IMG/VR virus record: IMGVR_UViG_3300037851_000141
Coordinates: 267,850-331,849 of that record
Strand: one strand, 5' to 3'
From: a virus
Lineage: Duplodnaviria > Caudoviricetes
Length of the DNA: 64,000 nucleotides
In this document: in pieces, positions 7,744-48,156 of the stretch
Layout: every line of letters begins with the position of its first letter
Position numbering within the stretch: the stretch's first letter is position 1
Translations under genes and position numbers: made by a program
The notes under the pieces: model-generated
Seen by the model: only the letters and a program-made list of their open reading frames with translations
Told to the model about the DNA's origin: nothing
Database searches by the model: none

Positions 7744-7864
7744 ACCCGTGTAGCTCAGATGGCAGAGCGAGAGCCTTCTGCGGAGATTATAGGAATATAT
7801 TGGGTTCGAATCCCAATCTCTGCTCCAAAGCTCTAGGTCGGAGGTTCAAGTCCTCTCACGGGCG
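7744..7864 (+). tRNA. trnR-UCU: tRNA-Arg(UCU) interrupted at 36/37 by a 48-nt insert
   Basis: D stem GCTC/GAGC, anticodon stem AGAGC/GCTCT, loop CT-TCT-[insert]-AA, T arm GGAGG-TTCAAGT-CCTCT, acceptor CCCGTG/CACGGG; A1-C72 mismatch, C20, followed by CTA rather than CCA. Confidence 0.8.
7780..7827 (+). ncRNA. nested mini-tRNA (acceptor stem + small hairpin + T arm + CCA)
   Basis: GCGGAGA/TCTCTGC 7-bp stem, TATA-GGAA-TATA hairpin, TTGGG-TTCGAAT-CCCAA T arm, T-CCA end. Confidence 0.85.
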
Positions 7865-44923: not shown

Positions 44924-45211
44924 TCAAATGAAAGGAATCGGATTATCTTGGACTACAGCAGACACCTTAAGGAGAGTCTTGATCGCACCCTCATTACGCA
45001 GATCAGTCATTCCATGTTGATCGGCACGCTTGGCATATTCAACTAATCCCTTGAGCAGAACCCGAACCATAGAGGCTTGAAGGGTACGATGCTCATTTAA
45101 CAAAGCAACAGCAAGCCCTTCAACAACTTCCTTTTCAGAACCCATGACATTGACCATTCTTGAGAATTGTTCAATCAGATTGCGAACTTCCTCAGTAATG
45201 TCAGGATTCAT
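44924..45211 (-). CDS. hypothetical protein
   Basis: promoter cassette; EHRTLQ motif. Confidence 0.6.
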   Translation of the reverse strand: MNPDITEEVRNLIEQFSRMVNVMGSEKEVVEGLAVALLNEHRTLQASMVRVLLKGLVEYAKRADQHGMTDLRNEGAIKTLLKVSAVVQDNPIPFI

Positions 45212-45234
45212 GTTCGTCTCCTTGTTGGGTCTGA

Positions 45235-46158
45235 TTATAGGCCGCGATTGAAGATGTCAACAAAGGTCTTCACCGAATCCGCCCAATTGTTAGACTCTCC
45301 CGTATAATCAGTCCGTCCATGACACTTGCGGAAAAGAACTGGCAAATGAGACTCGGCACCAACTTGAACGTAAAGACTGTCAGTATGAAGAGTTATCTCA
45401 CCACAGACAGCATCACCAGCAGGATTAGAACGAACATCATACTTGTCATCATCCAACTTCATCATCTTACGAGCAAACAACTTAAGGAATGTCTTTGCCT
45501 TGATATGTAGTTCCTTCTTGGCAAAATAATCTGGAGCCTTTTCCTTATATACCTTAATCGCTTCATCCACCCTGGTAGCATAAAGAGTCAGGGTATTAGC
45601 ATCAATGTCAAGTTCACCATTCTCACTAACTATAACATCATCAGCAGTAGCAGGCACATCCTTGAAAGTATAGGTCCGACCATCCTCTGTGACTGCCGCC
45701 CTAACAGTAGTAGGTTCATCAGTCTTGACAGGTTCAGTCTTTCCACTCTTATATTTGATATACTCGGGATGCTCAACTACCCAAGCAGGAGGCCGCCCCC
45801 GATTACCAAGAGTATAAGTAGCGCCCTCGGGACCAGTAAGAACAACTGGCTTGGATTCAACTACTGGAGTCGGTTCATTTTTAGCGACGTTAGTATCAGC
45901 AACTTCAGTAGACTTGGTAGAAACATAGTCAGGATGCGAAAGAACCCACTCAGGAACTCGCCCACGTTGACCAATCACATAGAGACGGTCATTAGCCTTA
46001 TCGACAATGACCTTTGAATCAGGATACTCAGACTTGGCAACTAATACCCTATACTTGAGTGATGATTCAACCCAGGCTGGAACCCGCCCACGTTGACCAG
46101 TTGTATAGGTTGCGCCATCTGGACCCTTGATTACGACACCGGCTGGAATGGTAGACAT
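45235..46158 (-). CDS. protein with three H-NS-like RGR repeats and a conserved C-terminal domain
   Basis: YTTGQRGRVPAWV, YVIGQRGRVPEWV, YTLGNRGRPPAWV; RSNPAGDAVCGEITLH. Confidence 0.7.
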   Translation of the reverse strand: MSTIPAGVVIKGPDGATYTTGQRGRVPAWVESSLKYRVLVAKSEYPDSKVIVDKANDRLYVIGQRGRVPEWVLSHPDYVSTKSTEVADTNVAKNEPTPVVESKPVVLTGPEGATYTLGNRGRPPAWVVEHPEYIKYKSGKTEPVKTDEPTTVRAAVTEDGRTYTFKDVPATADDVIVSENGELDIDANTLTLYATRVDEAIKVYKEKAPDYFAKKELHIKAKTFLKLFARKMMKLDDDKYDVRSNPAGDAVCGEITLHTDSLYVQVGAESHLPVLFRKCHGRTDYTGESNNWADSVKTFVDIFNRGL

Positions 46159-46270
46159 GATTGGACTCCTTTGTATGGCCGGATTATATGATCTGATTTA
46201 GAGAGTCAAGCACCCATTTTCCTTTTGACTTACAGTTATTTCATAGTATAGGCGAACAAGATATAAAAAT

Positions 46271-46299
46271 AAACCTAACCCCTTTTGAGGATTAGGTTT
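46271..46299 (-). terminator. intrinsic terminator closing the ncRNA island
   Basis: AAACCTAACCCC-TTTT-GAGGATTAGGTTT inverted repeat. Confidence 0.7.
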
Positions 46300-46310
46300 A
46301 TGACAGACTT

Positions 46311-46441
46311 GGAAGCAGAGGATCAGGCGAATAGTACTACCAGACACGCCTGCCGCTCGTTGCGTTGCATATAACGGGGGTTTTATTCTCAAGGAAGTTT
46401 CTTCAACATGAGAATGGTAGTTTCGTTTTTATCATGCTTCC
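46311..46441 (-). ncRNA. pseudoknotted RNA candidate, copy 1
   Basis: GGAAGCA/TGCTTCC closing stem, ATTCTCA/TGAGAAT and CAGGCG/CGCCTG hairpins, ACTACCA/TGGTAGT pseudoknot. Confidence 0.65.
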
Positions 46442-46454
46442 AAGTTGTCAATGA

Positions 46455-46600
46455 TGGTGGCCCTTGTAGGATTTGAACCTACTGCCAAGATGAATGTAGG
46501 AAGCCACTCCTTGTTTCATTCCTGGCGTCTACCTGACTTCCGCAATGGCTTTTTATCAATAGGAACTTAGTCTTGTTCCGGTTATGCGGTACTGCGGGCC
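46455..46600 (-). ncRNA. 146-nt tRNA-like RNA
   Basis: GGCCC/GGGCC-A-CCA acceptor, GTAGG-TTCAAAT-CCTAC T arm, GCG-GAAGTCAGGTAGA-CGC D-arm-like element, extra inserted domains; no canonical anticodon loop. Confidence 0.65.
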
Positions 46601-46629
46601 ATATATAGAGTTATCAAAAAACTTCAGGT

Positions 46630-46736
46630 AGTGGGCCGAGGTTTTGTCTATACCCCGGTTTCTCCTGCCAGAGCGGACAATTTGTGAAAAGATGGAGGCA
46701 GCCACCTTTTCTTTTGTCGTCCCTATAATGCCCACT
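46630..46736 (-). ncRNA. structured element with possible pseudoknot
   Basis: AGTGGGC/GCCCACT, GAAAAGGTGG/CCATCTTTTC, CCGGGGT/ACCTCGG stems; loop CTGCC complementary to GGCAG. Confidence 0.5.
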
Positions 46737-46825
46737 GTTCCTTATCAAAAAACCAGAGAAGGTTCCCCTGATTTTTTATACAACTGATGGGTATCTAATC
46801 CACCAGTTGTAAAAGAAAGGACTAG

Positions 46826-46942
46826 GGAAGCAGAGGATCAGGCGAACAGTACTACCAGACACGCCTGCCGCGAACTTTGCTTTGTATTCTCAAGGAAGTT
46901 TCTTCAACATGAGAATGGTAGTTTCGTTGTTATCTTGCTTCC
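46826..46942 (-). ncRNA. pseudoknotted RNA candidate, copy 2
   Basis: near-identical paired segments to 46311..46441 with a different linker. Confidence 0.65.
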
Positions 46943-46956
46943 TTTCGTCCTGCTGT

Positions 46957-46984
46957 ATCTTACTGGTCTTTTTTAGTTTGTCAA
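46957..46984 (-). promoter_or_regulatory. promoter of the ncRNA island
   Basis: TTGACA-N16-TAAGAT, 14 nt upstream of copy 2. Confidence 0.55.
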
Positions 46985-46992
46985 GAGCCGTT

Positions 46993-47151
46993 TCAATCGT
47001 AGTCAAGCCGCTTCTTTTTTCTACGATCCTTCCGCCGCAAGTCCTTTTTAGTAGGCTTCTTAGGAACAGAATAGCCAGGACCAGACTGCCGCTTTTGCTC
47101 AATCTCACGCTCGCGGCTGATCTTGCGGATGTCTCGGGCAATATCCTTCAT
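46993..47151 (-). CDS. 52-aa highly basic peptide (absent from the ORF track)
   Basis: promoter cassette + AAGGAA RBS + MKDIARDIRKISRERE...KKDLRRKDRRKKKRLDYD. Confidence 0.7.
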   Translation of the reverse strand: MKDIARDIRKISREREIEQKRQSGPGYSVPKKPTKKDLRRKDRRKKKRLDYD

Positions 47152-47194
47152 TTTGTTTCCTTATGCTTTGGATTATATGTCTATTTTCACAGAG

Positions 47195-47599
47195 TCAAAC
47201 GATTTTAGCCCAGCCCGCTTCCGTAGTAAAATAAAACTTGATACATCCAAACTTCTTCATCAACTCATAACAACGATTACAAGGCTTGGACAACTTAATT
47301 TCACCCTGCCTATTCAACCGTATATTGATTATCTCCCAACTCTTACGAAAATCAATAATACCTTTCAACTTGGTCAAAGCCCTAAATTCAGCATGACGAG
47401 TGGAAGGCAACGCAGTATCACGCTTACAACGATAACCAAAATAACTCGGAGGCTCACCAAAATCATTCATAGCATACCCAATAATACTATCATCCTGAAC
47501 AATAAAAGCCCAATGAAGAAACGACCCAAACGTGGTAGGATGCTTCGGCAAAGTCCTATGAGCCGTTTCCAAAGCCGAATCCAAAAGTGCTTTCTTCAT
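47195..47599 (-). CDS. zinc-dependent nucleoside/nucleotide deaminase (CDA/TadA superfamily)
   Basis: HAEFRAL and SKPCNRC (HxE...PCxxC). Confidence 0.8.
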   Translation of the reverse strand: MKKALLDSALETAHRTLPKHPTTFGSFLHWAFIVQDDSIIGYAMNDFGEPPSYFGYRCKRDTALPSTRHAEFRALTKLKGIIDFRKSWEIINIRLNRQGEIKLSKPCNRCYELMKKFGCIKFYFTTEAGWAKIV

Positions 47600-47613
47600 G
47601 GCTCACATTATAC

Positions 47614-48156
47614 CTACTTTTCCAGCGTGTCAACTTCCTTTTTCTCAATAGCTTTCTCTAACCTGTCAAGTTTCTCAAGAATAGAGTCTGTCCGTTCATT
47701 CATCTTCTTAATCGGATGCTCATACAACTTAATGTCAGGAGTCTTATTTACAAGTTCAACCTTCCTAACCGCAGACATATTAAAACCCCTATATGTTGCC
47801 TTTGGACGAGTAGTAATCTTAACAACAGTCTTCTCCCTATCCACTAAAGCATCAGTTCCAGTTAAAGTAGTCATATCATTATTGGAATCTACATAATAAA
47901 CTGCTCCACTCTCATGCTGCTCAATCGGCACGTAAATAACCTTATAGTTCTCCTGTATAGCATCATATTCGGCTGACAGATTCCCACAATGATTCATAGG
48001 AACAATAAACATCAAAGCACCTACAATAGCCAGACCTAAAAAGATTAACACAGATTTGGGAGAATCAAATGTTATCAGATTAACAATAAAACCAATACCA
48101 AATAAGAAAATAAATACTCCACCCAAAACAAAACTGATAATAGCAAGCAGTTCCAT
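47614..48156 (-). CDS. membrane protein
   Basis: two N-terminal hydrophobic helices. Confidence 0.65.
   Translation of the reverse strand: MELLAIISFVLGGVFIFLFGIGFIVNLITFDSPKSVLIFLGLAIVGALMFIVPMNHCGNLSAEYDAIQENYKVIYVPIEQHESGAVYYVDSNNDMTTLTGTDALVDREKTVVKITTRPKATYRGFNMSAVRKVELVNKTPDIKLYEHPIKKMNERTDSILEKLDRLEKAIEKKEVDTLEK

Follow-up and report, generated by a model that had tools for sequence, protein, structure and literature searches.

We identify a repeated folded segment of about 120 nucleotides (nt), here called element E, at the two ends of a non-coding RNA (ncRNA) operon in a jumbo, T4-like phage of 332 kb, and find that each of its copies is a presence/absence polymorphism among related phages, an observation that is new here. 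The window, meaning the whole stretch of DNA analyzed (64,000 nt), is the last 64 kb of the 331,849-bp IMG/VR virus record IMGVR_UViG_3300037851_000141. E is an optional cassette that the operon can do without, and it is gained or lost whole, with exact joints at the base of its closing helix. We propose that E is an accessory, independently folding RNA module of the phage's stable-RNA operon, shuffled between phages, and judge this reading to have an even chance of being correct. We favor it because E is optional, has exact bounds, has recently spread horizontally, keeps one orientation, is confined to the operon ends, and is swapped for another structured domain, called domain X. The core of E spans 117–131 nt, or 134–150 nt counting the closing helix, and its two copies lie between a promoter and a terminator as follows.

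46957–46984, minus strand: sigma-70-type promoter, TTGACA-16-TAAGAT, from a consensus scan (10/12 matches); kept in the related contigs L008, L013, and L015.
46818–46951, minus strand: 5′ copy (copy 2) of E, with the core GGAAGCA...UGCUUCC at 46942–46826 (117 nt); from repeat and fold.
46301–46450, minus strand: 3′ copy (copy 1) of E, with the core at 46441–46311 (131 nt, with a longer linker); from repeat and fold.
46269–46301, minus strand: intrinsic terminator with a 14-pair stem and a T run, from a consensus scan; kept in L008, L013, and L015.

A sequence-only reading of this DNA had described two copies of a pseudoknotted domain with a differing linker, and repeat search and alignment bear out the duplication. 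One direct-repeat block of 61 nt (46381–46441 and 46882–46942, 95% identical) and another of 46 nt (46311–46356 and 46826–46871, 98% identical) flank a linker that varies between the copies in both length and sequence. Copy 2 is framed by AGGAC-GAAA...CUA-GUCCU (46951–46947 / 46822–46818), and the outer helix of copy 1 is UGAC-A-ACUUGGAAGCA...UGCUUCCAAGU-CU-GUCA (UGAC-A-ACUU...AAGU-CU-GUCA). BLAST and nhmmer searches of the whole genome return two copies, about 500 nt apart in the same operon, and both copies and the one in L015 have the orientation of transcription. The promoter ahead of copy 2 (46984–46957) and the terminator behind copy 1 (46301–46269), both described in that reading, are recovered by consensus scan, and the GGAAGCA of copy 1 does begin 13 nt past the CCA (46457–46455) of a transfer RNA (tRNA)-like RNA.

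The pairings proposed for E occur in both copies and in the third copy, that of L015: GGAAGCA/UGCUUCC, AUUCUCA/UGAGAAU with an inner GAAG-AAA-CUUC, CAGGCG/CGCCUG, and ACUACC with the loop GGUAGU. Across the three copies, 98% of the 110 cells representing 37 proposed pairs are standard, compared with 29–45% when the 3′ partners are slid, and fold z-scores are −5.15 for copy 1, −4.47 for the L015 copy, and −1.6 to −2.05 for copy 2. The proposed pseudoknot fared less evenly: all of its paired segments are present, but the minimum-free-energy fold pairs ACUACC with GGUAGU in a nested helix and not in a pseudoknot involving the CAGGCG hairpin, and the three copies offer no covariation in its favor. 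Differences between copies, namely four substitutions and the replaced linker, all fall outside the proposed pairs. That 4/4 substitutions lie in the 34 unpaired of 100 non-linker columns (p ~0.01, counted from the three-copy alignment) hints at structural constraint, though not at covariation.

Known families do not account for E. Rfam 15 returned no family in 45800–47400 at gathering score or at E-values up to 10, and likewise none in the operons of relatives, in agreement with its earlier description as an unclassified structured domain. When the operon, or E by itself, was compared by blastn with 50,697 phage records, a single 26-nt chance match resulted. Two exact 21-mers from E had no match in 185,579 bacterial and archaeal species genomes (GTDB, one each) or in IMG/VR viral contigs, and the first of them also had none in JGI metagenome contigs. 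Exact and degenerate E patterns gave no true match in viral, metagenome, and genome contigs; eight pattern-matched loci were rejected as chance by eye and by nhmmer. An enrichment of GAAAC in the operon (6 observed, 0.96 expected) is partly an artefact of the duplication and is not used as evidence.

Relatives carrying the operon reveal that E comes and goes. We aligned contigs from four metagenome runs (X2–X5) to 45200–47700, and searches with flanking proteins gave three further operon contigs and no more: L008 (7810 nt, from X2), retrieved through a neighboring protein, and L013 and L015, retrieved through a neighboring protein of 134 amino acids (aa). L008 covers 45200–47688 at ~91–97% identity per aligned piece (92–99% in compared segments, ~95% over the operon) and skips 46302–46454 and 46814–46955, which are both E copies plus ~10 nt on each side. 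It keeps the promoter, a small hairpin (hairpin A), a central domain, the tRNA-like RNA (145/146 identical), and the terminator. An X4 contig is without the 5′ block (46814–46955, as in X2), a missing block of 142 nt (46955–46814), and X5 is without the 3′ block (46300–46450), its joint falling at 46299/46451 where four letters fit both sides. In an X3 contig the 3′ copy is present and joined to the tRNA-like RNA. A second X2 contig, of 8124 nt, holds, beside the same terminator, a more diverged E 3′ end (AGCAACCUCACUCAUCCGCCGCUUCUAAGU; about 65% identical) as a 30-nt loose end, and the E family therefore appears to have depth at the 3′ site. The picture of copies bracketing the operon thus holds for the window, where both ends are occupied, but the arrangement is not fixed, as relatives keep the operon without one or both.

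Comparison with L013 and L015 extends this pattern. L013, with a flanking protein 86% identical to that of the window, has an empty 3′ site (...ATC-TCAT-AAACC) and domain X at the 5′ site. L015, whose flanking protein is 65% identical, carries X in the 5′ position and E in the 3′ position, where its flanks are those of window copy 1 (CCACCA-TCAT-UGACAACUUGGAAGCA...UGCUUCCAAGUUCG-UCAU-AA). Between the window and L015, the E core is 95.7–96.5% identical, against 68–77% for the tRNA-like RNA, 59–75% for the central domain, and 72–86% for the flanking genes. E is far more alike than its surroundings and is therefore, to judge from these identities, younger in at least one of these phages and moved horizontally. 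By the same comparison, E has evidently spread between phages as DNA.

The two sites differ in how E sits in them, and the following features define their boundaries.

46451–46454 (left) and 46303–46300 (right), minus strand: TCAT direct repeat flanking the 3′ copy, from sequence; in the window and L015.
L015:2956–3046 and L013:3021–3108, 5′ site of the operon: domain X, a structured RNA of ~90 nt with five compensatory pairs.

The 3′ site holds a unit made of the core and its outer helix, and empty sites carry a single TCAT: CCACCA-TCAT-AAACC in X5 and ...ATC-TCAT-AAACC in L013. The terminal inverted repeat (TIR) of the 3′ copy, ACTTGGAAGCA/TGCTTCCAAGT, is perfect over 11 bp, and its extended form, TGACA-ACTTGGAAGCA against TGACAGACTTGGAAGCA, matches at 16/17; the L015 copy has the same. 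The 5′ copy shares with it only the 7-bp GGAAGCA/TGCTTCC, has a different outer helix, and is not flanked by a repeat. Here the E core alone occupies AGGAC-GAAA...CUA-GUCCU, a frame that is letter for letter that of domain X in L015, so that copy 2 and L015 X share GCAGGACGAAAGGAAG...TCCCTAGTCCTTT and differ in the interior alone. We read the 5′ copy as a domain swap that preserves the closing helix and would leave the RNA still foldable. Domain X itself, compared between L013 and L015, consists of two hairpins held by five compensatory pairs, with conserved loops UUGACGAC and AGUCAUAAAA that could kiss through UGAC:GUCA. Rfam holds no family for X, and X was not found elsewhere in the window's genome.

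The operon is encoded on the minus strand, and a small basic-protein gene (46993–47151) and a 307-aa gene (45235–46158) flank it. On sequence grounds it is a genuine promoter-to-terminator operon of structured RNAs only, with predicted transcription, because the tRNA-like RNA and domain X show compensatory changes. Frame-breaking insertions and deletions in L008, which hit the only open reading frames (ORFs) of the region, also count toward an RNA locus. Transcription should start at ~46951–46949, where the outer helix of the 5′ copy has its 5′ strand.

As an accessory RNA module, E would be transcribed as part of the operon. The primary transcript would begin with the 5′ copy as its base-paired end, and maturation of the tRNA-like RNA at its CCA end would set the 3′ copy free along with the terminator hairpin. 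At the RNA level, E would then be a stable domain that binds protein or RNA, serving as a decoy or sponge or protecting an end. Its movement would need no dedicated transposase and would proceed by recombination between co-infecting phages: microhomology (GGAAG/TCC) would serve at the 5′ site, and TCAT would be the point of insertion at the 3′ site. Module shuffling at promoter and terminator motifs is known from T4-type phages (PMC2839356, PMC4122927). If E does act as RNA, it would represent a new phage ncRNA family and would show that horizontal shuffling, as known for genes, extends to RNA domains.

A broader version of this proposal, to which we give a low probability, is that the operon ends are docking sites for exchangeable, hairpin-closed RNA modules (E, X, and a longer domain at the position of hairpin A in L013, the A-domain) that are traded like cassettes, each giving a different binding specificity, for instance for the 52-aa protein encoded upstream or for Ro60. 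Were it true, the operon would constitute an RNA-effector system that is modular and horizontally shuffled, perhaps including a Y-RNA type with swappable effectors. The phages compared here constitute a natural experiment: near-isogenic genomes have 0, 1, or 2 copies, a distant phage has the same module, and X occupies the same closing helix.

Several points weigh against an RNA function for E and in part lead to the main alternative. Sampling is thin, with only four operon-bearing contigs in searchable collections plus a few 151-nt contigs. The three full copies are ~96% identical and covariation among them is absent, all 33 core pairs being invariant, pseudoknot included; no G-U pairs tell an RNA strand from DNA hairpins; and dispensability, recent spread, TIRs, and a 4-nt flanking repeat are equally expected of a selfish element. 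[quoted passage not shown] We regard this as possible but rather unlikely. Like bacterial MITEs, and like those known, though rare, in phage and other viral genomes (PMC11602168), E is 100–150 bp long and non-coding, and at its 3′ site it has a TIR hairpin and a flanking repeat (TCAT in the window and L015, single in empty sites). It is present or absent at both sites even between phages ~97–98% identical, keeps ~96% identity across deeply diverged hosts, and occurs twice within one genome. MITEs are, however, dispersed, whereas E is known from two sites in one operon and one orientation, is found nowhere else in 332 kb, and has no bacterial copies, its two 21-mers being absent from the genome and viral collections described above and the first of them from the JGI contigs as well. 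One copy, unlike a MITE, is without the outer inverted repeat or a flanking repeat and sits as a core alone in the closing helix of X, which is unexpected of a transposase acting on fixed ends. No parent insertion sequence (IS) or matching transposase was found in the genome, including DDE_Tnp_1, rve, and Y1_Tnp transposases. The 4-nt flanking repeat, moreover, is one independent observation and is also explicable by microhomology-mediated deletion of a hairpin. Were E selfish, it would be a rare miniature mobile element confined to a phage ncRNA operon; either way, its two copies are not to be read as essential operon architecture.

An origin of E from TnpB/omega-RNA, IS200/IS605, or IS607 elements was considered and rejected, as TnpB gene ends are unlike E and whole-genome nhmmer gives two copies only; the two internal hairpins of E are also unrelated to each other, unlike the subterminal hairpins of IS200/IS605. 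The genome does contain four TnpB-like ORFs (Cas12f1-like_TNB), all outside the window (G000:C1:38505–39695, 181325–182956, 199027–200367, and 239237–240466 and 240559–240939). One of them lies directly downstream of a 212-aa serine recombinase, forming an IS607-type pair, and two lie inside the tRNA cluster.

Other explanations keep E an RNA and give it a more specific identity. E, or the AGGAC...GUCCU frame plus its insert, might be a Y-RNA-like partner of a phage Ro60, with a paired-end Ro-binding stem and an exchangeable effector (X or E), which we consider improbable. The phage encodes a Ro60-type protein of 581 aa (TROVE 39.7 bits, vWA_Ro60 45.7 bits) and, in its tRNA cluster, a YrlA-like RNA (RF02553, 47.6 bits against a gathering score of 69, E-value 8.5e-8), and E has the size of a Y RNA (YrlA and YrlB are modular, 80–130 nt, with an end stem) and ends that pair into a long stem. 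Near the transcript 5′ end, GACGAAAG in the frame of copy 2 and of L015 X fits GNCGAAN0-1G, the motif proposed for Rsr recognition (PMC4201824). This GNCGAANG-like motif is, however, a weak match, being 8 nt and degenerate, and it occurs neither in the E core (AACGAAAC) nor in the frame of the 3′ copy and has decayed to a degenerate form in L013 (GACGAGUU). The covariance-model search that finds the YrlA-like RNA elsewhere gives no YrlA or Y_RNA match in 45800–47400 at E-values up to 10, nor in relatives; the operon is ~124 kb from the Ro60 gene, beside which known Y RNAs are encoded; and E is without the tRNA-like T-arm or D-arm module. Both Ro60-related loci lie outside the window: the Ro60/Rsr gene at G000:C1:188950–190695 (L004:616–2361), with a YggL-like gene just upstream, and the YrlA-like RNA at G000:C1:180460–180587 (L005:8461–8588), a full-length RF02553 match.

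The sequence-only reading had also raised a ribozyme. That E is a self-cleaving ribozyme or another processing signal trimming the transcript ends would suit its position at the extreme 5′ and 3′ ends and its compact fold with a possible pseudoknot, but it appears highly improbable: no Rfam 15 ribozyme family (hammerhead, twister, pistol, hatchet, HDV-like) matches at gathering score or at E-values up to 10, CUGAUCC does not fit the hammerhead core CUGANGA, and, since the same operon persists in relatives that do not have E, its maturation does not require E. The remaining suggestion, a coding piece resembling that of transfer-messenger RNA (tmRNA) or a small peptide (D[KN]NETTILMLKKLP, or MLKKLP), we hold to be close to negligible. 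The short frames ending in a stop are indeed present in both window copies, and the same frame with its stop inside a hairpin is found in all three, with a CCA-bearing tRNA-like RNA 13 nt upstream of copy 1; conservation of the frame is explained by ~96% nucleotide identity. The tag-region idea did not survive further scrutiny: ARAGORN searches of window and genome, for standard and permuted forms alike, give no tmRNA, and Rfam finds none; the acceptor has C3:G70 and not the alanine identity pair G3:U70; and neither a start nor a ribosome-binding site is conserved for the short frame, while copy 2 does not have the ATG seen in the alternative frame. A tail of the form ...LKKLP is also unlike the hydrophobic ...LAA-type tmRNA tags, which weighs against this explanation.

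Between and beside the copies of E, the operon and its upstream neighbor comprise the following.

46993–47151, minus strand: gene for a very basic 52-aa protein (MKDIARDIRKISREREIEQKRQSGPGYSVPKK...), directly upstream of the operon promoter; the only neighbor kept in all four operon contigs.
46780–46810, minus strand: hairpin A (ACAACUGGUGG...CCAUCAGUUGU), from a repeat scan; kept in L008, whose transcript would begin with it.
46622–46741, minus strand: central domain of ~120 nt closed by AGUGGGC/GCCCACU; in all four operons, with no Rfam match.
46455–46600, minus strand: tRNA-like RNA of 146 nt, between the two E copies; present in every relative.

The tRNA-like RNA has an acceptor of 5–6 bp, a T arm (GUAGG-UUCAAAU-CCUAC), and an encoded ACCA end, and in the four operons 8 of its 28 consensus pairs show compensatory changes. 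ARAGORN calls it neither tRNA nor tmRNA, and an anchor pattern for it had no match in sequence collections. A looser T-arm/acceptor pattern finds >120 tRNA-Met/Ile(CAU) genes at prophage borders, none with E. Its T arm and acceptor 3′ strand, GGUUCAAAUCCnnCAAGGGyCAC, are identical in the bacterial tRNA found at these >120 borders, which is Met(CAU) according to ARAGORN. A tRNA of the Met/Ile(CAU) type may be the ancestor of the tRNA-like RNA. In L013 its end encodes CUA, not CCA.

The central domain is ~96% identical to that of L008 and 59–81% identical to those of L013 and L015. It is bracketed by a direct repeat of 12 nt without mismatches, which reads GUUUUUUGAUAA in the RNA (46753–46742 and 46622–46611) and may mark a site of processing or be left over from the insertion of another module. 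Hairpin A is kept in L008 through one-sided changes and is homologous to the longer A-domain of L013 (0/300 shuffles score as high). That domain, at the position of hairpin A (L013:3115–3195), holds CUUGG, AAGAUAAC, and CCUGCUGCCCUUCCAAGU in common with the ends of E. The similarity of E to the L013 A-domain is marginal (2–19/300 shuffles as high), and homology between E and hairpin A is not significant (57–62/300 shuffles as high); a shared origin for E and hairpin A is at most a lead.

By eye, the 52-aa protein is near-identical in all four contigs, and it is 87% identical to its cluster representative and more conserved than its neighbors. Libraries of 5.8 and 1.84 billion proteins contain no other homologues. 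Its conservation and position make it a candidate RNA-binding partner of the operon.

Among known systems, the operon is, by its sequence features, of the kind typified by the tRNA/RNAC/RNAD cluster of T4: non-coding and structured, with a tRNA-type unit and predicted expression. The T4 RNAs (species 1 and 2; 119–139 nt) are likewise small, structured, and co-transcribed with tRNA-type genes in a T4-type phage, and RNAC, like the 146-nt RNA of the window, ends in a T-arm-like hairpin; the biological roles of RNAC and RNAD are unknown (PMC3014915). Unlike E, which has no T arm, they are not known as duplicated optional cassettes, and blastn of the 50,697 phage records shows no sequence homology to T4 rnaC or rnaD.

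Closer to E in behavior are promoter (early) stem-loop (PeSL) cassettes, small modules inserted, deleted, or replaced between close T4-type phages and bounded by early promoters and stem-loop terminators (PMC2839356, PMC4122927). E recalls them in what it borders on: a promoter for the 5′ copy and, for the 3′ copy, a composite of terminator and promoter. PeSLs are recombination motifs whose cargo is normally a protein gene, whereas the cargo of E is a non-coding structured domain and one of its boundaries is a tRNA-like CCA end. Adjoining the operon, L008:1840–2160 compared with 46150–46215 of the window has an extra 66-aa gene between two copies of an early-promoter cassette (CTTGACTC...ATAATCC), apparently a PeSL-style modular insertion.

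The 3′ copy has a further parallel. External transcribed spacers (ETS) at tRNA 3′ ends act as sponges for small RNAs (sRNAs), 3′ETS-leuZ being an example, and the 3′ copy, like 3′ETS-leuZ, lies between a tRNA-type 3′ end and a terminator and would, like such a spacer, be released by tRNA maturation. E differs in being present also at the transcript 5′ end, and no target complementarity was identified for it.

Downstream of the operon, the 307-aa protein (45235–46158, minus strand) contains three copies of the motif G(Q/N)RGR(V/P)P(A/E)WV, as does its 339-aa homologue in L015. The motif resembles the RGR DNA-binding motif of H-NS/Lsr2-type proteins; Pfam gave no match for the protein.

The record is T4-like in carrying rIIA, RNA ligase 1, and QueC, together with 22 tRNA genes. 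Three tRNA genes of 117–121 nt (window 7744–7864, L005:11008–11124, and L006:7792–7908) have an insert of ~45 nt in the anticodon-loop region, which begins UAUAGGAA and includes a separate hairpin resembling a T arm (e.g., GGGUUCGAAUCCCAA). Of the three, the tRNA of the window escapes ARAGORN, and the one in L006 is called only as a 77-nt tRNA-Ser.

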